Below are positions 13,373-43,378 of a stretch of DNA of 44,308 nt, one piece after another (positions within the stretch are counted from its first letter, which is position 1; each line of letters begins with the position of its first letter). The notes under the pieces were generated by a model. That model searched no databases. It was not told the DNA's origin and saw nothing but the letters and a program-made list of their open reading frames with translations. The stretch covers positions 1 through 44,308 of IMG/VR virus record IMGVR_UViG_3300031902_000015; one strand, written 5' to 3'. This stretch comes from a virus. Lineage: Duplodnaviria > Caudoviricetes. Both the position numbers and the translations under genes were made by a program.

Positions 13373-14854
13373 TCAGCCGTTGGCGATGTTCGTGATGAGG
13401 CCGAACGAGGGCGGGAAGTAGTTCTGCAGCACGCCGTCGAAGTAGATGCCGTACTCGTACTTGCGCGACACACGCGGCCATTCGATCTGCTCGTAGTCCT
13501 TGCGGAGCAGCATCTGCGTGACGTTCGACACGTTCGAGAGCGGGTACGGCAGCGTGCCCGTGTAGAACAGGATCGTGCCCGGCGGGAGGTTCGGGTGCAG
13601 GTGCACCGGGATCTCCTGAGCGCCAGCCATCGAGAACTTGTTCAGGTAGCTGCGGACCATCACGCCGCCAGCGACGACGCCCTGATCCGTGTACTGGAAC
13701 ACGAACCGCTGGGCCGCCGAGCTGTTGCCCGCGAGGATCTTCTTGCCGATGTTCGCCATCTCCTGCGAGGAGACGTAGATGTCGGTCGGCGAGAGTCGCA
13801 GCGCATCCCAGAAATACTGCAGGGCCTTGTCGATCTCGACGATGCCGCCAGCGTTGTCCGAGGTCAGCGTCGTGCCGGTGCCCGCCGTGCCAGTCGCGAG
13901 CGTCTGGACGTAGCCGCCGTAGTTCGAGCCGTAGCAGTGAGTCATCAGGCCGTCGAACACGAGCCCGTTCTTGCTCTGGTCGGACGCGGGCAGATCGGTC
14001 GCGTTCTGGGTGCCCGACGCGGCAGCCGTGATCAGAACCGAATTGATCGTGGTGATCGCACCGAGCAGCTCCGTGCCAGCGGTCGCGCCCCAGTACCATG
14101 CGTAGGCGACGGCGCCCTTGATGACCGGGACCGTGCACGCGAGCGAGCCGGTCGTGCCCGTCGTGGTCGCAGCCGCCGAGGCTGCCGACTTGCGACCGAC
14201 GCCGCCACCGAAGGTGTCCGAGCTGCCGTCGCGATTGGTCCGCGTGACCGACGCCGTGATGCCGCCCGCGACCGTGTAGGCGAGGTAGGCTTCGAGCGTG
14301 AGGCCCGTGACGATGACCGAATGCGTGGTCGACGCGGCGAGCGCGCCCGCCGAACCCGCCGTGACGGTCGGCGCGGTCGCAGTGCCAAGCAGGAGCGAGG
14401 CATTGCCGCCGAGGATCAGCGCCTCTTCCGCGATCATGGTCGAGCGCAGCAGGCCCTCGACCGCAAGCGCCTTCACGTCCTGAAAGCCGTTCGCGGCGTA
14501 GTCCGCCTCGAAGGTCGCGTAGTCCTCAAGGCCGATACCCGCGAAGGCTGCCGTGTAGTTCGCGACGGTCGTCTGAATGGAGCCACCGCGGTTACCCTGC
14601 GAGACGCCAGCCCGGGTGTTCCCCGAATTGATCGCCGTGATCGCGCGCCAGTTGGCCTGCGTACCACCGACGGCCTTCACGCGCGCGGTGCGATTGCGCA
14701 GCGGCGTGTGTACCGGGTAGAGCGTCTTGGCCGGGGCTTCAAGGTTGTAGTAATTGATGCCCTGCACGGCCGAACTGGGCTGGGTCCAGTCCTTGCGCAG
14801 GCCCGTCCCCATGGCGGCCTTGAGCGCGTCGATGATCTGCGAGTTTCCATTCAT
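13373..14854 (-). CDS. Major capsid protein with a Thr/Ala-rich inserted beta domain
   Basis: 493 aa downstream of the protease; YNLEAPAKTLYPVHTPLRN and HLHPNLPPGTI..YFPPSFGLITNI; hairpin downstream. Confidence 0.85.
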   Translation of the reverse strand: MNGNSQIIDALKAAMGTGLRKDWTQPSSAVQGINYYNLEAPAKTLYPVHTPLRNRTARVKAVGGTQANWRAITAINSGNTRAGVSQGNRGGSIQTTVANYTAAFAGIGLEDYATFEADYAANGFQDVKALAVEGLLRSTMIAEEALILGGNASLLLGTATAPTVTAGSAGALAASTTHSVIVTGLTLEAYLAYTVAGGITASVTRTNRDGSSDTFGGGVGRKSAASAAATTTGTTGSLACTVPVIKGAVAYAWYWGATAGTELLGAITTINSVLITAAASGTQNATDLPASDQSKNGLVFDGLMTHCYGSNYGGYVQTLATGTAGTGTTLTSDNAGGIVEIDKALQYFWDALRLSPTDIYVSSQEMANIGKKILAGNSSAAQRFVFQYTDQGVVAGGVMVRSYLNKFSMAGAQEIPVHLHPNLPPGTILFYTGTLPYPLSNVSNVTQMLLRKDYEQIEWPRVSRKYEYGIYFDGVLQNYFPPSFGLITNIANG

Positions 14855-14904: not shown

Positions 14905-16374
14905 TCAGAGCAGCCGGTCAGGGCCGCGCGCGTGCACGGCTTTGATCAGGCTGGCCGTCTTGTTCACTTCCGCACCCGTATGGATCGGCTCTACGGACTT
15001 CATCAGCTCATCCGCGGCGCTGACCTTCGCGACGCTGCCGTCCTTCTCCACTGCAAGTAGCGCGGGCGCGGGCGCCGCGGCGGCGGCCGGTGCCACTTCG
15101 GAATTCGGTGCAAGCCCGAGGGCCTTGATGACGGCGGTGACCGTCTCGGCGATGAGCGCTGCGTTGGAATCAGCAGCGGTGTCCGCCTTCTTCGTCTCGG
15201 GCAGCGTCTGGCCGCACTTCGAGCACTTCGAGTCATCCGGCGGGAAAGCCTTGGCCACATCGGCGGCGGGATCGGCGGCCGGGGCGGTCTTCTCGACGAC
15301 GGCGGTGGTGTCACTCATGATTGATTCCTCGGTCGGTTGCCGTTTCCCTGCGCCGTCAGCCATTGCCATCTCGGGCATCGCCATCGGAGCCAGCGGGACT
15401 ACTAATTCGGTGCCTGCCACAAGTTCGGCGGCCTCTTCCTGCACAAGCGCGATGCCGACTTCCGCGAGATCTGCGATCCGCGCGCGGAGGTCCGCGGGAA
15501 TCGGCGAGACATCACCTTCAGCACTCGCTTCGTACTGCTGGCCCTGCGCAAACACTTCGAGGTCCCGCAGCAGTGCGAAAAATTCGACGACCCCGGCCAT
15601 GCCCTTCTTCAGCTCGGCCCCGCTGGTCGCCTTCCGGTTCGCCGCCTCATCGCGCGGCTCATCTGCGTTCATGCTGTCGCCGTCATCGGCGGGGGCCCCA
15701 GATTTCGGGGTGCGTTTGGCGCGCTTGGATTTGGGATCGCCAGTCCGATAGGCATTGATGCCCTCGGTGGCGCTTGCGGGCGCGACGAAGTCCTTGGCGA
15801 GCAGATCGGCGACGAGCGCCTTCGTGAACTCGGATGCCTTGACTGCGATTTCGTCGACGGTCGCCTTGAAGGGCACGATCAGCACGGAGCCGTCGGCCTT
15901 CTGGACGTTGAAGAATTTCGCCGTGGGAATGCACGGCCGATCCACGATTGAGATCTCGGTGGGCGCCGCGGTGTAGCGCTGCACCTTCGTGCCGTCGACC
16001 GTGTCGGTCCACTTGCGGACGTAGCGGCCACCGATGGAAAACCCGGTGTAGACGCCTTCGAGCACCTTCTGCCACTCGGCGTCGTCGACGATCTTTGCGG
16101 CTACGTCGATGGCTTTTTCGATGTCATCGAACGAGATCTCCGTGACCTTGCCCGCGGCCACCGAGCCGTGCATGGCGCGGACGTTGCCGAGCGACTTGCC
16201 CGCGCTGTCGGCGGACACCTCGGCGCTCCAGCTCTCGAACAGAGGCCGGGAGCTGGCGTAGTCGAAGATCTCGTCGGAGCGGTCGCGGACTTCCTGAGCG
16301 GCCCGGCCATAGACCGTGCGCTGGGGTTCGTCGACCTTGATGATGCGGGCGAAGATCGAGGCTTGATCCAACAT
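14905..16374 (-). CDS. Prohead protease (XkdF/HK97-like) fused to a scaffold region
   Basis: KVDEPQRTVYG, VRAMHG (His), YTGFSIGG (Ser) and EISIVDRP; acidic Ala-rich C-terminal half. Confidence 0.88.
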   Translation of the reverse strand: MLDQASIFARIIKVDEPQRTVYGRAAQEVRDRSDEIFDYASSRPLFESWSAEVSADSAGKSLGNVRAMHGSVAAGKVTEISFDDIEKAIDVAAKIVDDAEWQKVLEGVYTGFSIGGRYVRKWTDTVDGTKVQRYTAAPTEISIVDRPCIPTAKFFNVQKADGSVLIVPFKATVDEIAVKASEFTKALVADLLAKDFVAPASATEGINAYRTGDPKSKRAKRTPKSGAPADDGDSMNADEPRDEAANRKATSGAELKKGMAGVVEFFALLRDLEVFAQGQQYEASAEGDVSPIPADLRARIADLAEVGIALVQEEAAELVAGTELVVPLAPMAMPEMAMADGAGKRQPTEESIMSDTTAVVEKTAPAADPAADVAKAFPPDDSKCSKCGQTLPETKKADTAADSNAALIAETVTAVIKALGLAPNSEVAPAAAAAPAPALLAVEKDGSVAKVSAADELMKSVEPIHTGAEVNKTASLIKAVHARGPDRLL

Positions 16375-16433
16375 GGATCGAGTCTGGAACCGGGGTGCGC
16401 TACTCCCCGAAAATCGCCGCGCGCGCGAGCCCG

Positions 16434-19400
16434 CTAGTGGACGGTGTCGTCCTCTAAGTCAGCAGCCTCCGGATCGCCCGGGTATACGGTGACGAAATCA
16501 CACTTGCAGTTATGTACTACTATTGAGTCCGCGAGGAACCATCCGCTCACCGTTTCGAGGTTGAACACATGGCCCGAGTAACGCTTTCCCGCGATGACGT
16601 CCTTCACCTGCACGAGCGCTACGGCCGCGGGGAGTCGACTGTGGATCTCGCGAATGATCTCGGCTGCAGCAGCAGTACCCTCCGACACCGATTTGCCCGG
16701 CTGGGTCTGCTTATGCGAAGCCCCCACGAGTACCGGCTCGCCGCCGAGCGGCGCAAGACCCCCGAGCAGCGGCGAGTCGCGGCCAAGGGCGCCGCTCGGC
16801 GCGTCCGCAGCGCCAGCCTCGCCACCCGCTACAGCAACCGCCGAGCCGTCGGCATCGAGCGGCGCGGGCGGCCAATGACCCCGGCGGAAGCCCGGGTCTA
16901 TGCCGTGCTGATCGCCATCGGCGGCCACATCCGCCACGACCGGGCCTTCGGTTCTTACAATGTCGACTTCACCATCGACAACGCCGTCGCCGTGGAAGTC
17001 CAAGACTTCCGTCCTAGCGTTCGTCAACGTGCCACGCAGCGCAAGCGCGTCAAAAAGGTTTTCGCAGCGGGCCTCGACTTCGTAGTCCTCTACCTCCAAC
17101 GCCCGGACCAGAGCGGTTGGATCGTTGGTCTTGAAGATGTAATCGCCGCGTTTGATGTCCTTCGCAGCGACGAATCCTCGCTGCGTCAGTACCGGGTGGT
17201 GCGGGGTGACGGTAAGGTCGGGGTGGTTCGCGACGCGAATGGTGATGACTTCCCCTTCGTAGAAGCGCCGGTACGCGCCGCGAACGCCAGCGGCGGCAAC
17301 GCGGGTGCCTGAGATGACGCAGTTCGGGTGGAAGACCGGGAAGTTGTAGCCGTCGACGAACTCCTCGTCCCACCCGATCACGCCAGCATCGTGGGCGTCG
17401 TCGCACTCGTCGCTCTCGGGCACCTCGGTGTCGTGCTCGGATCCGAGCAGCGTGTACTTGCCGACAGCCCCCAGCTCCTCCGCCGTATGAACTCGCCCGC
17501 CGATATGCGCGAGGTTGAGTTCCGTGCGCGCGATCATGTCTGCGCGCTCTTCACTGAACGCCGTGTTCTCTAGGATCGAGTCGGCCAGCATCTTGGCCGA
17601 GTCGCCGTCGGTGACGGCTTGCTCGATGGTCGAGCGCAGCATGTCGCGGGTGCTCGATTGGATCGACCACTCCGGGTTCGGGTTCACCACCAGCTCGCCG
17701 TCGACCCACTTCATCCCGACCATCTCCGCGCTACGCGCGTCCGCGTAGGCAATGGCATGGACATCGGCCCAGTCGGTCGCGATGTCAACGGCCACGCGAC
17801 CGGCGTCGACGGCTTCGAGCTGCGCGCCGACCTTGAACTGCCGGACCATGTCGGCGTCCACGGCATCGGACACGGCCAGCCAGTTCGCGTCAGTCACGGC
17901 ATCGAGCACGCCGTCGACGATGTCGGCATCGGTCGTTGCCGTGGTGATTAGCGACAGGTAGGACGTGACCCCGGCGTCACTGATGTCCCTGCCGATGGCA
18001 TCGAGCGCCTCGTGGATCTTCACGCGCAGCGCCGCGACGTGTGCCTCGGTCATCGCTTCGAGCGGCGTGACGCCGGGACCCGGGCGATTGAGGACGGCCT
18101 TCGCGAGCTTGCCGATAGGGATTTCGCGCATCGTGCCACCGAGGTGCAGGACCGTCTTCGGCGCCCGCGTCATGACGTCCCATCCCTCGCCGCTGCCAAT
18201 GAATCCAGCTCGCCGATACCAATCGGCCAATGAGCTAGACGATGGACCGCGCTCGCCGTAGTGCTTCGGGATAAGGGTCAGGGTGACGCCATGCTTGTCT
18301 GCGAGATCCGTCAACAGCCCCAGCGCCTTCGATCCGGCGCCGGTCTTGTCTCCGGGCTTGAACGAACGGATGTCGGAAATGTGCGCGCTCGTGCCGTGCG
18401 CGTAGACCTCGATGGCGGCATTGCTTCCCGGGGCGACGCGCTCGCGCTCATTCAGTGGGTTCGTGCTGGTCTGCGCGTGCAGTTCATCCATGAACGACTT
18501 GATGCCACCCCCTCCCGTCCACTGATTGCCATGGAACTCATGCCCGGCAACGTCACCCTTCCTAACCTTGCCGAAGCGCGCGCGCATCGTCTCAAGATTG
18601 AAATGACCCGGGACGTTCTCGCTGCCCGCGCGATACCAAACCCGAACGGGCACGGTCTTGTGGCCGAACTCGGCGGCGAGCGCCAGACGATGATTCCCCT
18701 CGGCGACGTACGCTTCGCCGCGGTGGTTCACTTGGATTGAGATCGGGCTCGTGATGCCGTGCTCTTTCACGGAGTCGCGCAGCGGCGCTCCCTTATCGTC
18801 GTGCGTGATGTTCGGGATCAGGTGCTCGTTGTTCTCTCCGGGCAGCCCTTTCAGCTCATCGACGGGCAGACGGCCAGTGAACCCTGCCGTCACGGCACCT
18901 GAAACCTTCATCTTCGATGCTTCGGCTTTTGCCTTCTCGCCCTCCTCCCAACTGCCGCGCGGGTTGTCGAAGAAGACGCCTTTGACCTGTGCGGGTTGCG
19001 ATCCGGGCCCGTCTGCACCGCCGTCGGTGTATTGATTGCCGTGAAACGCATGACCCGGGACGTCACCCTTCTGCACGCTTTTCAGTACGCTCTTCAAGCG
19101 AAGCACGGATCCCGATGCGACCCGGTACTCACTCTCCCCGGCCACGTACTTGCCCTGTGATCCCGGCTTGGTCTCGAACTCAAGCAGCTTGATGTCGCTG
19201 CGTGGAGTTGCCGCGAACTTGTTCCAGTCATTGGTGAAGAACGCAGGATTGGCCGGGCCCCCGGCCACGTCTCGCCAGAACAGGGAGCGGTTGATCAACT
19301 CGGCCTTCTGGTGAACACGCTCCTCGCTCGTGGACGCGCGCTGCATGAATCCGCCAACGAGGTGCGCGTCACCCAGATCCTTCGCGTTCACGCCCTGAAA

Positions 19401-20198
19401 GGACAGCCGCAGGGCCACGCTCTCCGGTGGCGTGTCCTCGCCCACGAACCACGAGCGCGTGCCGTTCAGCGTGTCGTAGAGTTGCGAGGGCAGGCCGTCG
19501 ATGCTCCGTGCTGATTCGCGCGAATACGTGTCCAAGAGGTTCGAGTACGACGGCCCCTTCGCATCGGTACCGTCCTTCGCTTGCTGGACGAGATCCTCCG
19601 GTGTGATCTTGCCAGTCATCACGTCGTGTGCGAGGAGCATCCCATTCAGGTACTGATCGGCCATCGCACGATCACTGGTCAGGCTGATCGTGTCACTGGT
19701 GCCTCCACCGATACCGGAGGTGTTCCCGGACTCGTCCCGCGTCTTGAGCCCCTCGACCTGAACGGCGTCGCCTGCACTGGTGACGTGATAGAGCGTGTCG
19801 GGCAACGGCTGCCACGGATAGCCCTCGCTGTTAAAGAACCCGAGCGTGCGCGCGTCCTCCTGAGTAATGTCGCCTTGCGTCAGCGCCATCACCATCGAGC
19901 GATCCCAGTCGGCTTCCTTCTGCCGCCATGCTACAGCCTCCGGCGAGTTGTAGTCGCCGACGGCCGGGTACGGTCCCACGAATTCTTTCCTCGGCGTTTT
20001 CCACGCGTCGGACGTGGCTACGTTCGGCCACGATCCGCCGCCACCCGTCCACTGATTCCCTCGAAACTCATGTCCGGGTAGATCGCCCTTCTCCAGCGCT
20101 TCGTCTGACTCCACAAGATCAGCATCGAAGAGCGGCTCCTCATCGTTGAGGAACCCGCCGTCTAAGTGAGCGCCACCCTCAGCGCTTCTTGCGCGCAT
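16434..20198 (-). CDS. MuF (SPP1 gp7-like) minor head protein with three N-terminal tagged modules (ART-like, ParB-like, GNAT) and an intein
   Basis: MuF core from ~18131: RADMIARTELNLA..C..PVFHPN[intein]CKC; three tag copies upstream. Confidence 0.88.
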   Translation of the reverse strand: MRARSAEGGAHLDGGFLNDEEPLFDADLVESDEALEKGDLPGHEFRGNQWTGGGGSWPNVATSDAWKTPRKEFVGPYPAVGDYNSPEAVAWRQKEADWDRSMVMALTQGDITQEDARTLGFFNSEGYPWQPLPDTLYHVTSAGDAVQVEGLKTRDESGNTSGIGGGTSDTISLTSDRAMADQYLNGMLLAHDVMTGKITPEDLVQQAKDGTDAKGPSYSNLLDTYSRESARSIDGLPSQLYDTLNGTRSWFVGEDTPPESVALRLSFQGVNAKDLGDAHLVGGFMQRASTSEERVHQKAELINRSLFWRDVAGGPANPAFFTNDWNKFAATPRSDIKLLEFETKPGSQGKYVAGESEYRVASGSVLRLKSVLKSVQKGDVPGHAFHGNQYTDGGADGPGSQPAQVKGVFFDNPRGSWEEGEKAKAEASKMKVSGAVTAGFTGRLPVDELKGLPGENNEHLIPNITHDDKGAPLRDSVKEHGITSPISIQVNHRGEAYVAEGNHRLALAAEFGHKTVPVRVWYRAGSENVPGHFNLETMRARFGKVRKGDVAGHEFHGNQWTGGGGIKSFMDELHAQTSTNPLNERERVAPGSNAAIEVYAHGTSAHISDIRSFKPGDKTGAGSKALGLLTDLADKHGVTLTLIPKHYGERGPSSSSLADWYRRAGFIGSGEGWDVMTRAPKTVLHLGGTMREIPIGKLAKAVLNRPGPGVTPLEAMTEAHVAALRVKIHEALDAIGRDISDAGVTSYLSLITTATTDADIVDGVLDAVTDANWLAVSDAVDADMVRQFKVGAQLEAVDAGRVAVDIATDWADVHAIAYADARSAEMVGMKWVDGELVVNPNPEWSIQSSTRDMLRSTIEQAVTDGDSAKMLADSILENTAFSEERADMIARTELNLAHIGGRVHTAEELGAVGKYTLLGSEHDTEVPESDECDDAHDAGVIGWDEEFVDGYNFPVFHPNCVISGTRVAAAGVRGAYRRFYEGEVITIRVANHPDLTVTPHHPVLTQRGFVAAKDIKRGDYIFKTNDPTALVRALEVEDYEVEARCENLFDALALRGTLTNARTEVLDFHGDGVVDGEVDIVRTEGPVVADVAADGDQHGIDPGFRRGHWPPAPLDADGSAVAVAGGEAGAADAPSGALGRDSPLLGGLAPLGGEPVLVGASHKQTQPGKSVSEGTAAAAEIIREIHSRLPAAVALVQVKDVIAGKRYSGHVFNLETVSGWFLADSIVVHNCKCDFVTVYPGDPEAADLEDDTVH
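16509..17321 (-). mobile_element. Intein (271 aa) in the MuF HPN|CxC motif
   Basis: Begins CVISGTRV, block B LTVTPHHPVLT, block F VFNLET, ends VVHN followed by Cys; excision restores HPNCKC. Confidence 0.92.
16569..17312 (+). CDS. Antisense HTH plus DUF559/Vsr-like endonuclease inside the intein
   Basis: GAGG 8 nt before ATG; HTH GESTVDLANDLGCSSSTLRHRF; MTPAEARVY..FGSYNVDF..VAVEVQ PD-(D/E)xK-like pattern. Confidence 0.75.
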   Translation: MARVTLSRDDVLHLHERYGRGESTVDLANDLGCSSSTLRHRFARLGLLMRSPHEYRLAAERRKTPEQRRVAAKGAARRVRSASLATRYSNRRAVGIERRGRPMTPAEARVYAVLIAIGGHIRHDRAFGSYNVDFTIDNAVAVEVQDFRPSVRQRATQRKRVKKVFAAGLDFVVLYLQRPDQSGWIVGLEDVIAAFDVLRSDESSLRQYRVVRGDGKVGVVRDANGDDFPFVEAPVRAANASGGNAGA

Positions 20199-22551
20199 AG
20201 ATCAGCCCCAGTTCCTTGGACAGCCGCGTCAGCGCGACGTGCTCCGGTATAGGTTTCGAGCGGTCACGGCCCGCCCGGACGTTGTCCCTGCCGATCCCTT
20301 CCTGCATCGTGCGCAGCGCCCGGCCTACTTCGAGCTGCTGAGGCCAGCTTTCGCCGGGCCCGGGTCGCATGGTGTGCACGTACTTCGGCGTCACGGCGCG
20401 CAGCTCGCGCAGATCGAGCTGATACGCGAACTCCATGTCCGTCAGCGAGATCACGGAGCCGTTCGGATGGTTGTGTGTGTACGTCACGTCCTTGCCACGC
20501 ATCGCCGCCATCTGTTCAGCCGTGTGGTAGACGCTGGTCGCGTTGCCAACGACGCCGCGCTCGCCGAACATCGCCGTGCCGTCGGGTAGCAGCGCGAGCC
20601 CGTGCTCGATGTGATCGCCCGCGTGCGCGGCCTCGAAGTCCGTGAGCTTCTTCTGAACCTCGGCGCTGTGGCCGCCGGTCCATTGATTGCCCCTGAACTC
20701 GTGGCCGGGTAGATCGCCCTTCTCGACGATTGTCCTGACAGTCGTGATGCGGACCAGACCGTTGTGGCCGTTGTCCCACAGCACTCTTACCTGATGAAGA
20801 GAGCGATGCGGGAGGACGCGCTGGACAGTGCCCTTCATCCCACCAGACGAAACGACACGGTCACCGACCTTCGCCCATTCACTTCTTGGCGTTGACGTCC
20901 ACTGGTTTCCGCGGAATTCGTGCCCCGGCAAATCACCTTTACCGAAGCCCTCGCGGTCGCGCGTGACGAGGTCGCGAATCATCGCCGAGGTGACTGGCTT
21001 CGAGCCGACGACGCGTGATGCGGGCACCTTGCCGGATGACCGCACCCATGGGCCCTTCGAGTTCGCCTGCGTGAGCGGATCGGACGTGTCGATCTTCCAC
21101 TTGTCCCGCGCGCCCGTCTTCATCTCGACGATGGAGATCTTGCCAGTGCCCATGCCCTGATTGAATTCCCAATCCATCTTGCCAGCCCAGCGAACCGCGT
21201 CATCCTCGTGCGTGAACGCGAACACATCACCATCGCCGTAGCGCTCTTTGTTCCCAGCCTGTACCCAGTTCGTGTCCTGCATCGGCAGCAGACCGCGGGC
21301 CTCGATCTCTTTCGCCGTCTCGGTACGCGTGACGTGGTAGATCGAGGTGCCAGCGCCGGGCGTCCACTGGTTTCCGTGGAATTCGTGGCCCGGCAGATCG
21401 CCTTTCTTCACTGGCATCGGCGCATCACACACGACTAGATAGATGCGGCCATCCTTATCAGATTTCGCAAGGCGCTGCCACTTGCCGTCGACCACGCGCG
21501 AGCGCACATGAATCCAGCTCGCCGGGATGTCGCGATTGACCTCCAGCACCGTTGCGGGCTGGCCCTCTATGAAGTCCTTCGTCGCTCGAATGACCGTGTC
21601 GCGACGCGCCGACTCGGGTAGCTGAATCTCGAACACGACCGCGTTGTAGGGCGGGACTCCCGGCCTCGTGTCGTCGTGGCTGCCGCGGTCCTCGGCGTAG
21701 CGCTCCGCGAGACGCAGACTGCGCGTGGTGAACACCGGGTTCGGCATCTTCACGTCGGCGCGCTTCAATCCCTGCCGCGTGATCTGCGTCTCGAACTCCT
21801 GCGCGGTGCCATGGAACACGGTCGTGTCGCCGTGTCCGCCGTCGACCCACTGGTTCCCGCGGAAGTCATGGCCCGGCAGATCGCCCTTGCTGAAATCCGC
21901 GTGCTCGGCCAACCCGACGCGCTCATAACCCTTGAAGCGGCCGAGATTGCTGCCAACCGCATCCGCCAGATCCCCCGGACTGATCGCCGCGCCCTCGGTC
22001 AGTTTCCACTTCTTGCTGAATCCTGCCTTTTCGAGCGCGTCGTGCATGTCCTTGTGAAGGCCCGCGCCCGCCGGGAACGCGACGTCGACGTTCGGACCTT
22101 CGAGCGTGCGCAGATCGTAACCGCCTTCGCCGCCGTGATCGGCCTCGTACTCGCGGACCACATCGGCATAGCGCTGGGCATCTTCCACCGACACGGGCGA
22201 CACGAGGATCGGGATGTTGCCCTTCAGCAGCCCCGTCATCTGATTGCCCTGCGGGCCGCGGCCCTTGATGTCGTTTATGCCCGGCTGCAGCGCGTCGCCC
22301 TTGCCCTTGCGTTCCTTGCGCGCTTCGCGGATCGCATCCTTGATCGCGCTGTGATCGACAGAGGGCGACGACTCGGACGTCCCCTCGTCGCCGTCCCACC
22401 GGCCTTCTTCGTCGCGAGACTGGTCGGGATTGAACTCCTTCGCCAGATCGTCCGCGTCATCATCGAAGTAGTTCTCTGGCAGCCCGAAGCCGAGCGCCAT
22501 CGCATGGCGTTCTTCGCGAGTCTGCATCTCTGGCATCAGGTAGGAAGTCAC
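20179..22551 (-). CDS. Multi-domain tagged polyprotein: unknown, ART-like, ART-like, SH3-like, JAB
   Basis: VFHGT..GL..VFTT; IYHVT..GLLP; KVGDRV..KGTV..VLWDNG; THNHPNGSVISLTD; each domain follows a tag. Confidence 0.85.
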   Translation of the reverse strand: MTSYLMPEMQTREERHAMALGFGLPENYFDDDADDLAKEFNPDQSRDEEGRWDGDEGTSESSPSVDHSAIKDAIREARKERKGKGDALQPGINDIKGRGPQGNQMTGLLKGNIPILVSPVSVEDAQRYADVVREYEADHGGEGGYDLRTLEGPNVDVAFPAGAGLHKDMHDALEKAGFSKKWKLTEGAAISPGDLADAVGSNLGRFKGYERVGLAEHADFSKGDLPGHDFRGNQWVDGGHGDTTVFHGTAQEFETQITRQGLKRADVKMPNPVFTTRSLRLAERYAEDRGSHDDTRPGVPPYNAVVFEIQLPESARRDTVIRATKDFIEGQPATVLEVNRDIPASWIHVRSRVVDGKWQRLAKSDKDGRIYLVVCDAPMPVKKGDLPGHEFHGNQWTPGAGTSIYHVTRTETAKEIEARGLLPMQDTNWVQAGNKERYGDGDVFAFTHEDDAVRWAGKMDWEFNQGMGTGKISIVEMKTGARDKWKIDTSDPLTQANSKGPWVRSSGKVPASRVVGSKPVTSAMIRDLVTRDREGFGKGDLPGHEFRGNQWTSTPRSEWAKVGDRVVSSGGMKGTVQRVLPHRSLHQVRVLWDNGHNGLVRITTVRTIVEKGDLPGHEFRGNQWTGGHSAEVQKKLTDFEAAHAGDHIEHGLALLPDGTAMFGERGVVGNATSVYHTAEQMAAMRGKDVTYTHNHPNGSVISLTDMEFAYQLDLRELRAVTPKYVHTMRPGPGESWPQQLEVGRALRTMQEGIGRDNVRAGRDRSKPIPEHVALTRLSKELGLIYARKKR

Positions 22552-23063
22552 AGCTTCGGCCCTCCGAGGTCAGAGTAGACCCGCATCACGTCCGCATCGA
22601 AGCTGCGACCCGCGCGCGTGGCCGCGTAGACCTCCGCCACGTACTCCTGCCCGTTGGTGCCTGCATATCTGCTCACCTTTGCGGCAGTCGTCTTGAAGTA
22701 CGGGTTGCTGTTGCCATTCGTGTTGGTGCGGTACGAATCCTTGTCGATGCCACCGCCGCGCTTCGACAGCACATGGCCCAGCTCGTGGTAGACGATGTGA
22801 TTGGGGTCGGGCGATGACTGCCAACCTGCGTCGAACGCCTTCTGCTGATATTCGACCATGTTCTTCCACACGGCCGAGGACTTCCGGTTCGTGTTTACGA
22901 GGATCCCGTTCCCGTTGGCGATTGCTAGGACGTTGCTGTCCAGCGTGCGCTTCTCGATGGGCACGCCGTCGATCTCGCTCGGCATCGTCTTCAGCGAGCT
23001 GAAGTTGCCACCGCTATCCCAGCGTCCGTGATCATCGCGGGACTGGTCCGGGTTGAATTCCTT
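22396..23063 (-). repeat. Two copies of a second coding tag KEFNPDQSRDxxGRW
   Basis: 22396-22440 (KEFNPDQSRDEEGRW) and 23019-23063 (KEFNPDQSRDDHGRW). Confidence 0.9.
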
Positions 23064-25598
23064 GCGGACGTCATCGCGCTTCGTGACCTTCGCGCCGATG
23101 CTGTAGCGGATGCGGTAGTCATCCTTGAGCGTCGCCCAGTGCCCGGGATGGATCTCCCACGGCATCACGTCGACCGCGTACACGCGCATGTCGCGCTGCC
23201 GTAGCCCGCGGTCGTGCGCTGAAAAGCGCCGCGCCTCGCGCTCGGACGTCGCGAGCTGCGAGCCCGCGCGCAGCGAGTCGATCTGCATGTTTGGCGAGCC
23301 GTGATAGAAGTGATACGAGCCGTTCAGGTTCTGCGCGACCTTGCTGTTCGTGAGCCACTCGGTCGTGACTTGCTCTTCAGTCATCCCGCGCGCGAACGCG
23401 TTCGTGCTCGGCTGCGTCCATGAATCCGGCGGCGTCCTGCGAGAGTCCGAGATCCCGCCGCCCGTGTATTGGTTCCCGTGGAATTCGTGCCCAGCGACAT
23501 CGCCTTTCGTAACGTCCGGGGACGTCAGATCGTATGAGCCGACGTTCCCGACCGCGGACTTCACTTGGCGCGAGCTGAAAACGATGTAGTGCGTCGTGTC
23601 GCGGTTGACGCCGACCATCGGCTTCGTGCGACCGCTTTCAGAACCCCACTTCTTCGATACGGTATGGTCGATGATGCCGTCGTAGCCCGTTTTCACAAGT
23701 GCTTGGCGCACGACCTCGTTGCCGATCAGACGGCCGGTGCTCGAATCTTCAACATACTGCGCGGCTTCCTTGCCCATGGAGATCATCTTCTCGGCCGTGG
23801 CGCCACCATCGAAGGCCACATCCATCATGCTGCTGAGTTTGGCCCGCGCCTCTGTCTGCGACGCGTCGCTTGCATCCATCCCCGCGCGCACGGCCGCTAC
23901 GAATTTCAATCCCTGCTTCTCGTCCATGTACGTCGGATTGTCACCGCCAAGCACGACAGGATTCACCATGCGCGCGTAGAGCGGCATCACGTTCGCTTGC
24001 CGCCCGTTCAGTTCTGTTGACGCTTGATCCAACGCGCGCTGATCGCGGAAATCCCATTCGTTCTCCGACGCTATCTGCTCCGCACGCAATTCGATTCGAT
24101 TGGTTAGATCCGGGCCCTCCCCCGCATAGTTCGCGCTCGCGTCCTCCGGGTTGTCCGTGAGATAGATCCCGGCGCCGTGGTCCGCGTCCTGCTGTCCTTG
24201 CTTGGGCTGAAACTCGGCGATGTCGTGCGTCGTGCCGTGAAAGACGACCAGCGGATGGCCGATCTCATCGACCACTTTTGAATCGCCGAACCAAGCCTTG
24301 AACTCGGGCGACCCGGTGCCGCCAGTCCACTGGTTCCCTCTAAATTCGTGGCCCGGCAGATCGCCCTTCTGCACGGCCGAATCCATATCGACGATCACCT
24401 TCGCAGGGATCGACTTGTAGCCCATGCTGGCCAACGCGCGCAGCCGATGCTGGCCTTCGAGCACGGCCCAGTTCCCATTGGCGAAGAGCCCGACGTGCAA
24501 CGGCGCAATCTTGCCGCTCGCGCGAATGGCGACAGCAAGCGCCGAGATGCGCGCCTGCTCCTTCGCTCCTGAATAGAGCGGATCGTTGTAGGTCAGGGCC
24601 CCGTCATCCGCAGGGACGGGCTCGACCGGCATTTCACGCACGCCGGGAGCTACTTCGCTGTCCTCGAAGTTCGAGCTTGCGACCTCGTGTACGTCATCGG
24701 TCTCCGTAGTGAGTTCGAGATCTTGGAACTCCGAGATCCGCGGCATCGTATCGAGCACCGCTTGCTGATCCGGGGTCGCGTCCTGATACCACGCGCCTGT
24801 CGGCTTCGGCGGATCCGGCGGGTGCTCGATGTCGCCGCCATGCCAGCCGGGCTTCTCGCCGCCGGTCGATGCGAGGTCTTGCTGCCCGCCATTGCCGGTC
24901 CACTGATTCCCCCGGAAGTCGTGTCCGGGGAGGTCACCTTTCGTCACGGGCGGCGCGAACCAGTTCTTGCTGTGCCCCTTCAGGTCCGCGAGGATCTGCG
25001 CATCGGGCGTGCTCAGCGGCCACTTGCCCGCGCGACTCAATCGGGACGTGTCGTTGACCGCGATCTCTGTGCTGCCAATCGGCAGCGGCTCCGTGACGAA
25101 CGGGACCGTGTTCTTCTCGCGCTGATCCTGTGCCCATGACGTGCGCGGCAGCGCTGCGTACGCCGCGGACCGCTCGGGCCCGACCGGCAAGGCGTTGGCT
25201 GCTGCGTAACGGACCGACAACGCGCGGTCTTCGGGCATTCGCAAATTCTCGTTGAACATCTGGCCGAGCTGAAGCACGTCGCCCGGCTTCATCTCGACCT
25301 CGAAGGCATGGAGCGTTGGGTCGCTGCCTCCGTATTTCTCTGCGTAGATGCGCGCGTACGGGAGCGCGGCTTTCGCTTCTTCCTCGGTCGCGGCGACGTA
25401 GCCGTAGATGCCATTTCCCAGCGGTCGAAGAATCTGCGACGACCCGCCTCCCTCGCCTGTTCCGACGGAGAGCTTGTCTGGCACGTCGAAGTTGTGCCCG
25501 CCGTGGATGATGATGTACTTCTGGCTGTAGCCGCCGTCAGTCCACTGGTTGCCGTGAAACTCATGACCCGGAAGATCACCTTTCGCTAGATTCCGCAT
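22548..25598 (-). CDS. Multi-domain tagged polyprotein: ART-like, ParB-like, ART-PolyVal-like, ART-like, zincin metallopeptidase
   Basis: IHGG..GTGEG..GIY; EGQHR; WFGDSKVVD..VFHGT..GYDGII..VF..QVKSA; FYHGS; HELGH..SRYA..EYVAE; start trimmed to MRNLAK. Confidence 0.85.
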   Translation of the reverse strand: MRNLAKGDLPGHEFHGNQWTDGGYSQKYIIIHGGHNFDVPDKLSVGTGEGGGSSQILRPLGNGIYGYVAATEEEAKAALPYARIYAEKYGGSDPTLHAFEVEMKPGDVLQLGQMFNENLRMPEDRALSVRYAAANALPVGPERSAAYAALPRTSWAQDQREKNTVPFVTEPLPIGSTEIAVNDTSRLSRAGKWPLSTPDAQILADLKGHSKNWFAPPVTKGDLPGHDFRGNQWTGNGGQQDLASTGGEKPGWHGGDIEHPPDPPKPTGAWYQDATPDQQAVLDTMPRISEFQDLELTTETDDVHEVASSNFEDSEVAPGVREMPVEPVPADDGALTYNDPLYSGAKEQARISALAVAIRASGKIAPLHVGLFANGNWAVLEGQHRLRALASMGYKSIPAKVIVDMDSAVQKGDLPGHEFRGNQWTGGTGSPEFKAWFGDSKVVDEIGHPLVVFHGTTHDIAEFQPKQGQQDADHGAGIYLTDNPEDASANYAGEGPDLTNRIELRAEQIASENEWDFRDQRALDQASTELNGRQANVMPLYARMVNPVVLGGDNPTYMDEKQGLKFVAAVRAGMDASDASQTEARAKLSSMMDVAFDGGATAEKMISMGKEAAQYVEDSSTGRLIGNEVVRQALVKTGYDGIIDHTVSKKWGSESGRTKPMVGVNRDTTHYIVFSSRQVKSAVGNVGSYDLTSPDVTKGDVAGHEFHGNQYTGGGISDSRRTPPDSWTQPSTNAFARGMTEEQVTTEWLTNSKVAQNLNGSYHFYHGSPNMQIDSLRAGSQLATSEREARRFSAHDRGLRQRDMRVYAVDVMPWEIHPGHWATLKDDYRIRYSIGAKVTKRDDVRKEFNPDQSRDDHGRWDSGGNFSSLKTMPSEIDGVPIEKRTLDSNVLAIANGNGILVNTNRKSSAVWKNMVEYQQKAFDAGWQSSPDPNHIVYHELGHVLSKRGGGIDKDSYRTNTNGNSNPYFKTTAAKVSRYAGTNGQEYVAEVYAATRAGRSFDADVMRVYSDLGGPKL

Positions 25599-27037
25599 AC
25601 CAGCGCCTTGCCTACTGCGCGCTGCGCGATCCCCCACTTCGCGGCGAAGGCGTTCGCTTCCTTGAGTGCGGGAATGACCGTGGTCCCGGTGCGGTAGACC
25701 TTGATGCTCATCGACTTGCCGGAGGCGTACTCACTCGCCACGGCCGCCGCCCAGTAGTGGTGACCGTCGATGATGTAGTTGTCCTTGGTGACCCAGATGC
25801 GGCGATCCTTCATCTCGCCAGCCGCCATCTTCGCCATGATCGCCGCAACCTTCACGCCGTCCAGCTCGCGCTGCGATGGGCGCAGGTACGCGGGGTCTTC
25901 CTTCTCCTTGCTGACGCCGTCGTTCTTGCCCAAGTGATGGGCGAACTGATCATTGAGATCTATCTCGCCCTTCTTGTCCTTCGGCAGCGCGTCCCCGCGT
26001 GATCCCGGCGTCGGCTTGCCCGACAACTGCGGCATGTCGAGGCGCGCGATCCCCATGCTCCCGGCGCAGAACAGGTTCGTGTTTTGCACCGACACATGGC
26101 ACAGGTCATAGACCTTCTTCTCGCCGCTCTGCGCTTCCTTGCCGATGGCGGCCAAGCGATCCATGAAGACGGCAACTTCGCGCGGCTGGTCGAGCACGAC
26201 ATCCTTGCCCTCGCCCACGAGCTTCACGGCGAGATCGAGATTCCCTTCGACGTGGTAGCGGCCTTGAGCATCTGGCTTGCCATCGCCGCCGCCTTCGGTC
26301 CACTGATTGCCATGGAACTCATGACCGACGACGTCGCCCTTGGCTACTCCGTCTTCGGCTGCGTCGGCTGCAGCGCCATCAGTTCCGCGATCTCCTCCTC
26401 CGTCGCCGGGCGCCCCGAGATCTGCTCGAACAACTTCAGCACGTTTTCTGGCTTCTTCGCCTCCGCGCCCGTCATCAGCGTGAAGACCACCGGATTCTGA
26501 TCCGTCTTGTTTGACATAGCGGGCTCGCGCCTCCGGCTTGATTGAGACCTCGGACATCGTCTTGAAGCTGAACGCAGCAATCTGATTATGCTTCATGCCG
26601 ATCTTGATCGCACTCGCGCGCGACTTCGTGAGCACGACGACATCGAGGAAGATCCGGCCGCTAACCTTGTCGTGCCACGTCCCGAACGAATTCTTCGGGT
26701 CATCGAGCAGATCGGCATTCTTCTCGATGAACTTGTGCAGCATCGCCGGGGTCGTCTGCTTGACCGTGTGGTTCGTCCCGCGCTCAGGGTATGCGCTCAC
26801 CGAGAACACGTTGTCGCCGGGCTTCGGCGATTCGTGCGTGTGCGGCTGGTACGTCAGCCCCTGATTCTTGATCGTGCGCGCGAGCATCCCGCGGTCGGTC
26901 ATGCCACCGCCGCCGTCCTGCCACTGATTGCCGTGGAACTCGTGACCCGCGACGTCGCCCTTCTCGATGAGCGCCCTAATACCAGCCTGCAGACGTGGGC
27001 TTATAGGGCCAGTGAAAGGGACCCATGCTGCCCGCAT
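25586..27037 (-). CDS. Tagged polyprotein: SAM-lyase-like domain plus ParB/Srx-like domain
   Basis: GTWHD..IFLDV..AIKIG..HNQIAAF; LRPSQRE..IIDGHHYWAA; start at MRAAW uncertain. Confidence 0.8.
   Translation of the reverse strand: MRAAWVPFTGPISPRLQAGIRALIEKGDVAGHEFHGNQWQDGGGGMTDRGMLARTIKNQGLTYQPHTHESPKPGDNVFSVSAYPERGTNHTVKQTTPAMLHKFIEKNADLLDDPKNSFGTWHDKVSGRIFLDVVVLTKSRASAIKIGMKHNQIAAFSFKTMSEVSIKPEARARYVKQDGSESGGLHADDGRGGEEARKRAEVVRADLGAPGDGGGDRGTDGAAADAAEDGVAKGDVVGHEFHGNQWTEGGGDGKPDAQGRYHVEGNLDLAVKLVGEGKDVVLDQPREVAVFMDRLAAIGKEAQSGEKKVYDLCHVSVQNTNLFCAGSMGIARLDMPQLSGKPTPGSRGDALPKDKKGEIDLNDQFAHHLGKNDGVSKEKEDPAYLRPSQRELDGVKVAAIMAKMAAGEMKDRRIWVTKDNYIIDGHHYWAAAVASEYASGKSMSIKVYRTGTTVIPALKEANAFAAKWGIAQRAVGKALVCGI
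26344..26517 (-). CDS. Nested alternative-frame small protein (57 aa)
   Basis: MSNKTDQNPVVFTLMTGAEAKKPENVLKLFEQISGRPATEEEIAELMAL...; fills the low-complexity linker of the host ORF. Confidence 0.55.
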   Translation of the reverse strand: MSNKTDQNPVVFTLMTGAEAKKPENVLKLFEQISGRPATEEEIAELMALQPTQPKTE

Positions 27038-28904
27038 CGCCCTCCTGCGCGTCGGACTTGCGGGCTGTGGCATCGAGCCCGTGCTTGCCCTTCAGGTAGC
27101 CCTCGATGTGCTTCGCCCCGACATCTTGCGTCCGGCCGTCGGTGTCGGTGAGCCGGTAGTTCGTGGAGCGTGTCGAGGGGTCATAGCCCAGCGGCTTCAT
27201 CGTCAGCCCACGCTCGGCCAGCGCATGGATCGCCGTGACGATATTGACCTTCGCGCGCGCGTTGAGGGGCCGCCCCTCCTTGGTCTTGAGCGGGCCGCCG
27301 CTGCCGTTGACGAACTGATTGCCGCGGAAGTCGTGGCCCCCGAGATCGCCCTTTTTGGCGTCGTCGGCAGCTTTCTTCGGCGGAACCTTATCCCCGGGCT
27401 TGGCAGCCCCGCCAGCAGCCGGGGGCTTTCCACCCGGGGGCGTAGCATCGCCCGGGGGAGCGCCTCCCTTGGGCGGCTCTCCGGGCTTGGGCGGCTCCCC
27501 GCCCGGACCCATCGGCGGCGCGGGCTCCCGCAGTCCCGGGGCCGTGCCGTCCGCGAACTTCTCGACCGGGACCGGGCCCGACCCCGTCCAGATCATGTGG
27601 CCAACCCCGATGGGCTCCTGCCCCTTGCGCTCCCGGACCTCGTCGACCGACAGCACGCCCAGCTCGATGTACGTCTTGTCGATCCCCGACTGCGCCTCGG
27701 CCGAGATCTCCGTCTGCACGTTCCAGCGGAACTGCAGATCCGCCTCGCCGAGCTGCACATTGATGATCGCCGTGAACTCATCGCGCAGGTAGTTCATGAG
27801 AGGCAGCAGCCCCTCGGCCACCGCGGTCTCCTGCTGCGTGCTCGCCGTTGCGCGATTCACCATGCGCAGGAACGGCATCGGCGACAGGCTGAACGCGTAG
27901 CACATGATCCGGATGAGCCACTCGTCGAAGTCGCCCTTGAGCGTGTCTTCCCCAGTGCGGATCGGCAGCACCTTGAGGTTGCCCGGCACGAACTTGGCGT
28001 GACGACGCGCGGCGCTGTTGCCCTCCAGCATCGCGTCCCAGTACGTCTGGAACTGCGCAATCTGCTCGGGCAGCCAATCCTCAGGCACCGAGATCAGGGC
28101 CTCAGGGATGTTGCCCTCGGTGAAGAACTGCAACTGCGACAGCTCGCGGCGCAGCCCGATGTTCACCGTCATCATGATCTGCTCGACCGGGCTCAGGCCG
28201 TACAGCCGGAAGCTCGCGGGATTCCTGATCCGGTACTGCAGCTCCTCGCGCGTGTACGTGCTCGCGGGCACGCCCTTCAGCACTTGCCGATACGCAGGCA
28301 GCGGTGGCTGTGGCGTGCGGCCACTGATGTCGATCAGGCGCGTGATCGTCGCGGCGTCGACCTGTTCGAGCGCGACCAGCTTCTTGCCCTTGTAGACCGG
28401 CCAGTGCGCGACCGCATCGAGCACGAACATATCTTCGAGGTAGGAGCGCAGCCAGCCGTGCCAGTTCAGCTCGGTCGACGGCTGCTTGAAGAACGCCGTG
28501 ACCGCGTCGATCTTGGCCTTGGTCGCGGCATCGGTCTTGCGCTGGTCGGCCTCGTCCTTGGGAACGATTGACCACTCGTAGCCGCAGATCTCGTCCTTGC
28601 GCGTCTCGATGATGAGGCGCAGCAGATCGTAATTGCCCGCGAGCCCGCGCAGCTCTTGGAACGTGACGCCCGTCTCGCGACGCGGCTGGATATAGAGGTT
28701 CTGCCCTGCCATGTAGTCGAAGGCGCGGCCCGCGGTTTCCTGATGCGTCGCAGGGATCGGGTCTTCAGGCCCGAACCAGCCACCCGAGAGCGCGTAGCTC
28801 ACGGCTTGGCCGAGTCGCTTGAACACGCCCGGACGGTCGGCGCTCGGCGGCAGTTTCATGGGAACGAGGTTTTGGCTCATGGCGTCTTTCCAGTCATTCC
28901 GCAC
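26976..28904 (-). CDS. Portal protein with a Pro-rich linker and a tagged C-terminal extension
   Basis: LRGLAGNYDLLRLIIETRKD, YGLSPVEQI, FFTEGNIP and GVLSVDEVRE..G.EPI. Confidence 0.92.
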   Translation of the reverse strand: MRNDWKDAMSQNLVPMKLPPSADRPGVFKRLGQAVSYALSGGWFGPEDPIPATHQETAGRAFDYMAGQNLYIQPRRETGVTFQELRGLAGNYDLLRLIIETRKDEICGYEWSIVPKDEADQRKTDAATKAKIDAVTAFFKQPSTELNWHGWLRSYLEDMFVLDAVAHWPVYKGKKLVALEQVDAATITRLIDISGRTPQPPLPAYRQVLKGVPASTYTREELQYRIRNPASFRLYGLSPVEQIMMTVNIGLRRELSQLQFFTEGNIPEALISVPEDWLPEQIAQFQTYWDAMLEGNSAARRHAKFVPGNLKVLPIRTGEDTLKGDFDEWLIRIMCYAFSLSPMPFLRMVNRATASTQQETAVAEGLLPLMNYLRDEFTAIINVQLGEADLQFRWNVQTEISAEAQSGIDKTYIELGVLSVDEVRERKGQEPIGVGHMIWTGSGPVPVEKFADGTAPGLREPAPPMGPGGEPPKPGEPPKGGAPPGDATPPGGKPPAAGGAAKPGDKVPPKKAADDAKKGDLGGHDFRGNQFVNGSGGPLKTKEGRPLNARAKVNIVTAIHALAERGLTMKPLGYDPSTRSTNYRLTDTDGRTQDVGAKHIEGYLKGKHGLDATARKSDAQEGDAGSMGPFHWPYKPTSAGWY

Positions 28905-33293: not shown

Positions 33294-34643
33294 TCAGCCG
33301 TCCTTCCCGACGTGCCAATCGAGGGGCGTTTTGACTGTGCCCTTGCCGACCAGCGCCATCATCTTGGCCTTGTCCTCGGCAGCCTTGTCCTTGCTGAGCG
33401 TCGCGTAGTAATCGAGCATCCCAGTCGTGCCGCGCTTGATGAGCGGCGCAAGCGCATAGCGGATCGCGTCGATGATGTGGTTGTGGCGGTCGATCACTTC
33501 GGGGAGCACGTCGCCCGTCATGCGGTCCGTCTTGTACGCGTAGAGCCGCGCCTCTTGCGCTGCGTAGGTGCAGCGCGGGTGGATCACGATCCGCTTGTAC
33601 TGGCGCAGGTAGGCGATGCCGTCCTCTACGCTGCCCGACCACTTATCCGCCGCCATCATTCGCGGGTAGCCGTGCGCTTGCAGGTAGGAGATCGTCTCGG
33701 GCCGGGAGTTGTCGCCGCGCATGACGTACGCGCGCGCGCCCGGGAGGCACCGATCAAAGAGCGCCGCCGTCTTGTCGATGTCGCAGCCAATCGAATACGC
33801 CTCGTGCTCGATGTGCAGATCACCATCGTGCAGCCACAGCTTCACGCCCGCGGTTGGGTCCTGCGCGAAGCCCCAGTCGGCGCCGAAGTACGGGCCATCC
33901 CAGCCATCGCCGCCGCCCTCGAAATACTCGACCACCCACTTGCCCCTGAGCACTTGCGAGTCGCTCATCGCGCGGGTCTCGCCACCCCAGACCCATGCCG
34001 CGGCATCGGGATCGACGCGGTAGAGATGCTCCATCTCGGCGCGCAGCTCTTTCGTGAACCACGGGTTATCTGACCACGAGACCTTTTGCACGACGGCCCC
34101 GGGCATGGGCTTCAGCACGAAGCGCCGATATGTCGGGTCTGTTTCCTGATCGGGGTTGAACGAGATCCAGATCTCGGAGCGCGAGGCTCGAACGGTCGGA
34201 ACGAGCACGGCCCACGATTCTTCAGAGACGCGCTGCGCTTCTTCCACCCAGCAGATGTCGATGCCTTCCATCGACTTGACTTCAGTGATGTTGGTGCGGA
34301 TCCCCGAGAAGATAAACTCGGATCCTGTCACGCGGCTCGTGATCGCCGTGTTCGTGATGTCGTACCACTGCGCGAGGCCAAGCGCATTGATCTGATCGCC
34401 GATGAGCTTGTGTACGGATTCCTTGATCGACTTCTGCAGCTCGCGAGCGCACAAGACGCGCAGCTTCTTCCGGTGCGTCAACGCGATCAGTGCGCGCGCG
34501 AATGCCCATGACTTGGCGCCGCCGCGCCCGCCGTAGAAGACCTTGTAGCGCGCCGGTTTGAATAACGCCGCGAACGCGGGCGGTATATCAATCCGCGTCT
34601 GTGGCTGGGGCGGTCGGCTCTGCAGTCGTCGGGAAGTGGACAT
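33294..34643 (-). CDS. terL: Terminase large subunit (PBSX-like)
   Basis: Walker A YGGRGGAKS, Walker B CWVEEA, nuclease GADWGF..DP and NHIIDAIRYA. Confidence 0.95.
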   Translation of the reverse strand: MSTSRRLQSRPPQPQTRIDIPPAFAALFKPARYKVFYGGRGGAKSWAFARALIALTHRKKLRVLCARELQKSIKESVHKLIGDQINALGLAQWYDITNTAITSRVTGSEFIFSGIRTNITEVKSMEGIDICWVEEAQRVSEESWAVLVPTVRASRSEIWISFNPDQETDPTYRRFVLKPMPGAVVQKVSWSDNPWFTKELRAEMEHLYRVDPDAAAWVWGGETRAMSDSQVLRGKWVVEYFEGGGDGWDGPYFGADWGFAQDPTAGVKLWLHDGDLHIEHEAYSIGCDIDKTAALFDRCLPGARAYVMRGDNSRPETISYLQAHGYPRMMAADKWSGSVEDGIAYLRQYKRIVIHPRCTYAAQEARLYAYKTDRMTGDVLPEVIDRHNHIIDAIRYALAPLIKRGTTGMLDYYATLSKDKAAEDKAKMMALVGKGTVKTPLDWHVGKDG

Positions 34644-35037
34644 GGATTTCCGGTGGTGCCGCATTGCCCTGTGGATCGGTCATCGCGGTCTTGGACGGCG
34701 CATCGAGTCCGAGCAGGGAGGCCCTGCGATCCATGATCTTGAGCAGCGTGGCCGCGGCGCCGGGTACGTTCTTCTGCTTCCACAGTGCGAGCGTCATGGC
34801 ATCGAGGCGTTCAAGCTCCATCGTGCGGACCGCGTCGACGTTCTTCGCCAGATGCTGCCCGCGCTCTTCCATTGCTTGGCAGATCATCTGGTGCGCGGAC
34901 TGCTTCGTCATGTTCATCTTCTTGCCGATCTCGACGAACGTCTCGCCGCTCATCCTGAGCGCGATGGCTTTCTCGATCTGCGCCACGCGCGCGAACGTCT
35001 TCGGATGCGCAAGCTGTTTGTTCGGGCGAGTGCCCAC
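34588..35037 (-). CDS. terS: Terminase small subunit (HTH)
   Basis: ALRMSGETFVEIGKKM HTH; ELERLD..IMDRRASLLGLDAP; directly upstream of terL. Confidence 0.8.
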   Translation of the reverse strand: MGTRPNKQLAHPKTFARVAQIEKAIALRMSGETFVEIGKKMNMTKQSAHQMICQAMEERGQHLAKNVDAVRTMELERLDAMTLALWKQKNVPGAAATLLKIMDRRASLLGLDAPSKTAMTDPQGNAAPPEIHVHFPTTAEPTAPATDAD

Positions 35038-40668: not shown

Positions 40669-40740
40669 GCGGGGATACCTGCAATCCCCGTGCCAGCCGG
40701 GTTGAGCCCCTCTTAACCGCCGATCCTGCCCACCGGGCAG

Positions 40741-43375: not shown

Positions 43376-43378
43376 TCC

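Follow-up and report, generated by a model that had tools for sequence, protein, structure and literature searches.

The T4 prohead protease gp21, which cleaves after L/I-X-E, breaks down the scaffold and takes off the capsid targeting sequences (CTS) (PMC9026906), and in SPN3US gp245 cuts after A-X-E and processes head ejection proteins (PMC10052503). For polyvalent and MuF- or portal-fused effectors, autoprocessing by a metallopeptidase or processing by a fused assemblin-like peptidase was proposed (PMC5512222, PMC9503650), and XkdF was named as a probable head-processing peptidase (PMC7824862). Little is settled about how non-T4 phages load, process and eject internal effectors, and any processing of polyvalent head proteins has so far been conjecture. 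Here we analysed the whole of virus record IMGVR_UViG_3300031902_000015 (44,308 bases, 83% complete; the window), in which five head-region proteins are divided into modules of 73-340 amino acids (aa) by a conserved peptide, hereafter the tag, that is directly preceded by Lys at each of its 16 occurrences. Based on sequence comparisons and structure models it is likely that head cargo is processed here by a prohead protease that cuts before each tag. The strongest evidence for this cleavage reading is the covariation, in sequence, of the residue before the tag with the protease family of the phage.

Fourteen of the tags are of type A, GDxxGHxFxGNQ[WYF], and two of type B, EFNPDQSRDxxGRW. The original prediction, made from the sequence of the window, had listed 16 pre-tag triplets, and all of them were found in place on the minus strand. 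It had described them as hydrophobic-X-K throughout, which is correct for the Lys (P1 of the predicted cut); a hydrophobic residue, [VILF], was present at P3 before 15 of the 16 tags (background 0.20, binomial p 6e-10), with AKK in the portal protein as the exception. The type A tags diverge freely at synonymous sites and at P2 and P3, and are thus not recent DNA copies. By profile search the content of the tagged proteins includes an ART-PolyVal domain (E 9e-20), two ParB-like domains, one HExxH metallopeptidase, MuF and an intein, and five further modules carry a His motif that by eye resembles that of the ART-PolyVal module. The modules had been called effectors, a name that profile matches justify for some of them and that lacks such support for the rest.

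The locus resembles the T4 system of gp21, IPI-III, Alt and CTS in its gp21 fold and three-residue hydrophobic-x-P1 site, and the scaffold cut at many sites, the trimmed capsid leader and the ADP-ribosyltransferase (ART) cargo of T4 (PMC9026906) are predicted here as well. However, P1 is Lys rather than Glu, and the scaffold tails show no P3 bias before Glu. The T4 CTS precedes the site and is removed, whereas here the conserved element, the tag, follows the site and would be kept; the leaders before the first site are unrelated here and perhaps as short as 6 residues. Furthermore, the genome is siphovirus-like, of 44 kb, and strings as many as five cargo modules together in one protein. With the polyvalent proteins, which are predicted to be packaged and injected, the locus shares multi-domain proteins of the head region that contain ART-PolyVal, ParB-like, metallopeptidase and MuF domains (PMC5512222, PMC9503650), and at least two effector-type domains in one head-region polypeptide were found in 22548-25637 and in 16434-20198 (ParB-like plus MuF). 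The accessible text of those papers names no junction tag or site (PMC5512222, PMC9503650), while each module here has a tag and a protease-matching site. SPN3US is similar in its short motif, the many sites in its propeptides and the processing of ejection proteins (PMC10052503), but there N-terminal propeptides are removed and, in the accessible part of that report, chains of tagged modules are not described (PMC10052503). Encapsulin cargo-loading peptides are short portable peptides on unrelated cargo of an HK97-fold shell. The tags resemble them in these respects, compared by description only, and differ in being coupled to a protease site. A literature search, in which the literal tag strings were included and most subscription papers and supplements lay outside its reach, found no description of these tags. 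What is new is the tag, retained and portable; the cleavage part extends the known T4 logic.

IMG/VR was scanned with DNA patterns for tags A and B in which the residue before the tag was left free. Among 272 distinct contexts the residue before the A tag was K in 171, L in 43, A in 27, S in 18 (mostly within a compound tag), M in 3, D in 3, N in 2 and F in 2. It was consistent within each locus, and two additional tag types, GGPGSG... and WDExxHPR..., emerged. A first set was made of the 30 loci with an identifiable protease or scaffold, this genome included. The P3/P1 pattern derived from the tags was enriched in the scaffold of the same locus (mean 0.55, permutation standard deviation 0.10, p<1e-5), and with class expressions that were picked after the data were seen the matching motif was densest in the scaffold for 7 of 7 tag-class groups. 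Sites per 100 aa amounted to 2.03 for K (13 loci), 1.46 for R (3), 1.21 for [RK]-x-[AL] (5), 2.58 for N (4), 1.92 for D (1), 2.74 for E (2) and 1.28 for F (2).

For a blind set the expressions were fixed beforehand. Three new scans gave 95 loci with a protease recognised by purpose-built hidden Markov models (HMMs), or 43 clusters at 70% identity, and 17 clusters were left out (2 like the first set, 2 too short and 13 without an unambiguous tag class). The top motif of the scaffold was the tag class in 17 of the 26 clusters (permuted mean 5.6, maximum 14, p 5e-5). Additionally, P1 was counted by protease family from tags in fixed register, with no expressions and with dereplication by exact context only. 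It was Asp in 38/38 tags of phages with canonical DUF2213 (16 loci), Lys in 35/35 tags with HK97-like proteases (11 loci) and in 17/17 with XkdF-like proteases (7 loci), and Leu or Ala in 41/47 with divergent DUF2213 (11 loci), where R/K stood at P3 in 33. The P1 code is not one inherited trait, because Lys goes with at least two protease families and divergent DUF2213 with two codes. An HMM of tag A matched 1,590 protein clusters at E<=0.001; in the best 150 of these the median tag spacing was 210 aa, and with L and A merged 124 of the 142 multi-tag proteins had one and the same P1 throughout (permuted mean 41, maximum 55), a count made with a profile that itself favours Lys.

This covariation bears on two other explanations. 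The Lys might be the first residue of a duplicated tag or recombination handle, with the scaffold match reflecting amphipathic-helix composition; the 16 tags are homologous, so their Lys residues are not independent, and the terminase subunits likewise have an excess of [VILF]xK. But the preceding residue is not fixed in the tag family, the tag DNA has diverged at synonymous sites and the P3 bias in scaffolds is found for Lys, not for Arg or Glu. The covariation largely refutes duplication, to which we give next to no weight. Alternatively, another enzyme could cut the junctions, for instance a host protease once the cargo has been ejected or the HExxH metallopeptidase that forms a module of 22548-25637. 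Such a module is indeed encoded here (PF14891, E 2e-4), and Iyer et al. proposed metallopeptidase autoprocessing of polyvalent proteins (PMC5512222). Neither enzyme would explain why P1 tracks the prohead-protease family and the scaffold motif, and a tag-free cultured relative, Brevundimonas phage Polewnik, retains the motif in scaffold and capsid leader, which makes cutting by another enzyme very improbable.

An outside check on cleavage by the prohead protease came from the Asp rule, which was derived from locus L041. In Pseudomonas phage E215 the capsid relative has the sequence A62-M63-D64-S65, and the protease-scaffold gene upstream, DUF2213-like by eye, contains AQD-A, AMD-S and AQD-S. 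In the cryo-electron microscopy map of E217 the first 65 residues are missing and residues 66-382 are seen, the former being cleaved or disordered according to the authors (PMC10329688). With the E215 sequence set against the E217 map, the Asp rule lands within one residue of the experimental boundary.

Several further observations were made on tagged loci. A hydrophobic-x-Leu pre-tag class occurs in L005, L013, L051, L307 and L614, for which the protease was not found in the DNA fetched. Large K-type loci (L001, L009, L036, L062 and L068) contain as many as about 14 tagged modules in 20 kb and adjoin a transglycosylase and DNA methylases, distant from their capsid genes. Tag-bearing head clusters in L048:8906-13429, L033:7710-9554 and L041:4937-6751 include Acb1/2H phosphoesterases and topoisomerase IB, which are fused to MuF or to the protease. 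The capsids of phages with divergent DUF2213 (L158:2867-3919, L003:14623-15726) have type 1 encapsulins and the Sf11 capsid as their closest relatives in sequence.

In the window itself, all 11 sites listed earlier for the protease and scaffold exist, as do LRK-D at the capsid (K21) and LAK-A before MuF (K700). However, IIK-V is unlikely to be a cut site, since the model of the protease places IIK13 within a strand (7-15). In the protease-scaffold protein [VILF]xK was present at 15 of 34 Lys (7.6 when shuffled, p 0.0025) and [VILF]xK[GADS] at 10 of 34 (3.0 when shuffled, p 0.001), and the scaffold tail (aa 150-489) by itself had 9 of the latter against 2.2 (p 0.0003). The cargo bodies were at background, with 30/164 and 11/164, respectively. 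An enrichment of [VILF]xK[GADS] in head over tail proteins, as had been foreseen, was observed when all Lys were counted (41/264 vs 10/165, p 0.003) but not when the tag lysines were removed (28/248, p 0.08), so that the tags and the scaffold alone carry the difference. Enrichment in one genome is by itself suggestive only.

The protease domain comprises aa 1-170 and is closed by VQK159. His69 (16168-16170) and Ser113 (16036-16038, in GFSIGG) are invariant in 121 of 121 sequences and are, from their motif, the putative catalytic residues. The gene sits between those of the portal and the major capsid protein. The structure model (predicted local distance difference test, pLDDT, 85.6) had T4 gp21 (5jbl) as its Foldseek top hit (prob 1.00, template modelling (TM) score 0.50, E 1.2e-3) and indeed as its top three (prob 1.00, TM 0.48-0.51, E 1.2e-3 to 2.6e-3), so that the model has the barrel fold of prohead proteases. 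The protein matched phrog_9427 and, below the curated cut-off of 24 bits, Peptidase_S78_2 (XkdF, PF14550; E 3e-4, 21 bits); given that score we call it XkdF-like and not a member of Peptidase_S78_2. In the tails of the 120 best of 1,145 protease homologues, which were not dereplicated, [VILF]xK[GADS] occurred 824 times against 290 when shuffled; 118 of the 120 tails exceeded the shuffled expectation and 83 reached p<=0.05. The hydrophobic bias peaked at P3 and was specific for Lys (0.39, compared with 0.17 for Arg, 0.20 for Glu and a background of 0.19). Similarly, of the 120 best-scoring capsid hits, the window's own protein among them, the anchor motif allowed 113 to be scored, and in these the last Lys before the conserved core had L (106), I (5), V (1) or A (1) at P3 and was followed at P1' by A, D, S or T in 113/113. 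The capsid model (pLDDT 83.4) matched phage capsids in Foldseek at E 7e-10, and its leader was modelled as a helix at 2-14 followed by a low-confidence stretch at 18-36. Polewnik has the same protease and capsid genes, with a leader ending in LAK-S and 9 sites in the protease tail against 2.5 expected, and no tag was present in the 24.5 kb examined; the motif therefore goes with the protease family, whether tags are present or not. Relatives of the protease also occur in Paraburkholderia and Trinickia records, and in the homologues P0028, P0036, P0050, P0110, P0119 and L026:6590-7525 tagged, often His/Ala-rich cargo directly follows the protease domain.

In the mechanism we infer, the cargo chains would enter the prohead, where the gp21-fold protease would cut exposed hydrophobic-x-Lys sites. 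Cutting would shred the scaffold, whose peptides would leave, trim the capsid leader and release 16 modules, each starting with its tag, from the portal, MuF and free cargo polyproteins. These modules would stay in the head and, once ejected, serve in host takeover or counter-defence. For two of the five proteins, packaging and injection are suggested by the fusion to portal or MuF. The claim that the protease cuts after these Lys residues and makes the tag the new N-terminus is, on sequence and models, a prediction that has come through the comparisons with the scaffold, the capsid leader, the protease fold, the P1 switches and the start-codon tags described below.

A number of points weigh against this account. 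Cleavage in this phage is a prediction from sequence and models, and for the three polyproteins that carry neither MuF nor portal, packaging is presumed. The blind prediction was wrong in 9 of 26 clusters, and as the loci are phylogenetically related the permutation p-values are optimistic. In the first set, L216 has no K site in the scored region, and the R motif is densest in the E-class scaffolds. The portal site AKK has no hydrophobic P3. The motif is not enriched across head proteins generally, head and tail proteins do not differ significantly when P1' is unrestricted (73/264 vs 38/165), and the terminase subunits are also in excess for [VILF]xK (11/27, p 0.013, and 5/11, p 0.03). The cargo is not depleted of the short [VILF]xK[GADS] motif, and the 14 untagged sites inside portal and cargo would need shielding by folding. 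About 80% of the head proteins of SPN3US remain uncleaved (PMC10052503), and the E217 authors allow disorder instead of cleavage (PMC10329688). The locus yields exact predicted cut sites and N-termini, for which trypsin-based N-terminomics would be blind to cuts after Lys. Predicted P1 specificities are Lys for XkdF-like proteases, Asp for canonical DUF2213 and R/K-x-L/A or Asn for divergent DUF2213.

The tag appears to be a portable element. The first two locus sets contain homologues of 9 of the 16 modules. Some, the ART-PolyVal module included, are preceded there by tags of type A, B, C or D, and in other phages the same cargo was found behind different sites; since the same modules follow different tags and sites, the tags are interchangeable. 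In 24 of 418 tag contexts a start codon lay within three codons, and 8 of these also had an in-frame stop within ten codons upstream, so that the tag begins the open reading frame (ORF); 13 of the 24 were judged to be true starts. In L181 and L212, where the tag is at the start, a plain scaffolding gene lies directly before the capsid gene, and no protease was found among the proteins scanned. Plain scaffolds of this kind are not known to need a protease. From these sequences the tag appears to work at or near an N-terminus, which either a cut or a start codon can create; that the protease recognises it as part of its site is unlikely.

The start-codon tags also bear on a reading in which hydrophobic-x-Lys serves to dock the polyproteins on protease or scaffold and so loads them, with the junctions cut rarely or never and the cargo travelling whole or in large pieces. 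Uncleaved polyvalent proteins do exist, such as N4 vRNAP, ArdC and TraC1 (PMC5512222), the T4 targeting sequence contains a cut site and targets without processing (PMC9026906), and SPN3US shows incomplete cleavage (PMC10052503). On the other hand, the same motif closes the capsid leader and recurs through the scaffold in the manner of degradation sites, the A and C tags follow it in exact register, and the start-codon tags have no site, which is thus not needed for the role of the tag. We therefore regard a docking role of the site as improbable.

With cleavage as the preferred reading, the job of the tag itself has to be considered. Docking of the module inside the head for loading and retention has about an even chance of being correct, while a DNA-binding or ejection-leader role, the main alternative, seems rather unlikely. 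Docking is favoured as a first guess because three polyproteins have neither MuF nor portal and one leader has maybe six residues; a role after cutting, in retention or ejection, is also indicated, because the tags on portal, MuF and protease fusions need no loading signal. More broadly, tailed phages might have in common a small family of exchangeable N-terminal address peptides (GDxxGHxFxGNQW, FNPxQxRDxxGRW, GGPGSG..., WDExxHPR...) by which any cargo is sent into the head or leaves together with the DNA. Each phage would expose them through the code of its prohead protease (K, D, N, R, E, F, L, R-x-A/L) or by means of a start codon, and they would amount to a protease-independent, portable signal for capsid loading or ejection; we put the chances of this a little short of even. 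If true, the pre-tag residue would reveal the specificity of uncharacterised proteases such as DUF2213. The 13-residue tag can be fused to a reporter and could serve for loading proteins into phage heads.

Table 1. Positions of the predicted head genes, tag junctions and domains in the window.
Feature	Position	Strand	Remarks
Terminase	33294-34664	-	
Portal protein	26976..28904	-	one C-terminal tagged module (124 aa, no assignment)
Portal module tag	27351-27353	-	Lys codon; tag after AKK518
Cargo polyprotein 1	25586..27073	-	short leader, 2 tagged modules; start codon uncertain, overlaps portal end
Its junctions	26960-26962; 26339-26341	-	IEK; VAK
Cargo polyprotein 2	22548..25637	-	5 tagged modules: His-Gly-motif module, ParB-like, ART-PolyVal, ART-like (motif only), HExxH metallopeptidase (B-type tag)
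Its junctions (Lys)	25581; 24939; 24366; 23505; 23061	-	LAK; VTK; VQK; VTK; VRK
Cargo polyprotein 3	20179..22551	-	5 tagged modules
Its junctions (Lys)	22438; 21886; 21403; 20938; 20719	-	LAK (B-type tag); FSK; VKK; FGK; VEK
MuF polyprotein	16434..20198	-	3 tagged modules: ART-like by motif, ParB-like, no assignment; then LAK700, MuF (aa 854-960), intein/HINT insert (aa 964-1230)
Its junctions (Lys)	20088; 19068; 18558	-	LEK; VQK; VRK
LAK700	18099-18101	-	
Prohead serine protease domain	15850..16374	-	XkdF/S78_2-like, T4 gp21 fold (model)
Scaffold tail of protease gene	14905..15849	-	rich in [VILF]-x-K sites
Major capsid protein	13373..14854	-	HK97 fold, 493 aa; 21-residue leader ending LRK21 (14792-14794), then DWTQPS

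The virion genes, namely terminase, portal, the four polyproteins, protease-scaffold, capsid and tail genes, are all on the minus strand (Table 1). The portal protein was identified by PF04860 (E 8e-17) and phrog_2662. The two modules of cargo polyprotein 1 have 207 aa, without assignment, and 250 aa, with a match to phrog_2859. In cargo polyprotein 2 the Pfam matches were PF02195 (E 5e-5), PF18760 (E 9e-20) and PF14891 (E 2e-4), of which ART-PolyVal scored above the cut-off and the ParB-like and M91-like matches below it. The Pfam/NCBIfam profile search gave no significant match for cargo polyprotein 3, in which two modules are ART-like by motif only, one of 73 aa is small-barrel-like and the remainder are without assignment (Atlas leads <0.9). 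The MuF polyprotein matched PF04233 (E 1e-8) and PF14890 (E 6e-6), in addition to ParB.

Some minor observations concern the same region. In cargo polyprotein 2, SWTQPS follows soon after a tag (aa 738-744; 23405-23425, minus strand) and echoes the predicted mature capsid N-terminus DWTQPS, a likeness that could be due to chance or to mimicry. Successive cargo genes overlap out of frame (26976-27073, 25586-25637 and 20179-20198), with leaders within the end of the preceding gene, and look like split or coupled polyproteins. The intein/HINT domain lies at the end of the MuF domain (16437-17309, minus strand), and a tagged polyprotein of L064 has an intein too. Antisense to it, a 247-aa ORF (16569-17312, plus strand) without Pfam or PHROG match reads like a real protein and is by eye possibly endonuclease-like. 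Finally, genes at 39731-44238 (plus strand) are by eye repressor-like and recombination-like, which suggests a temperate lifestyle.

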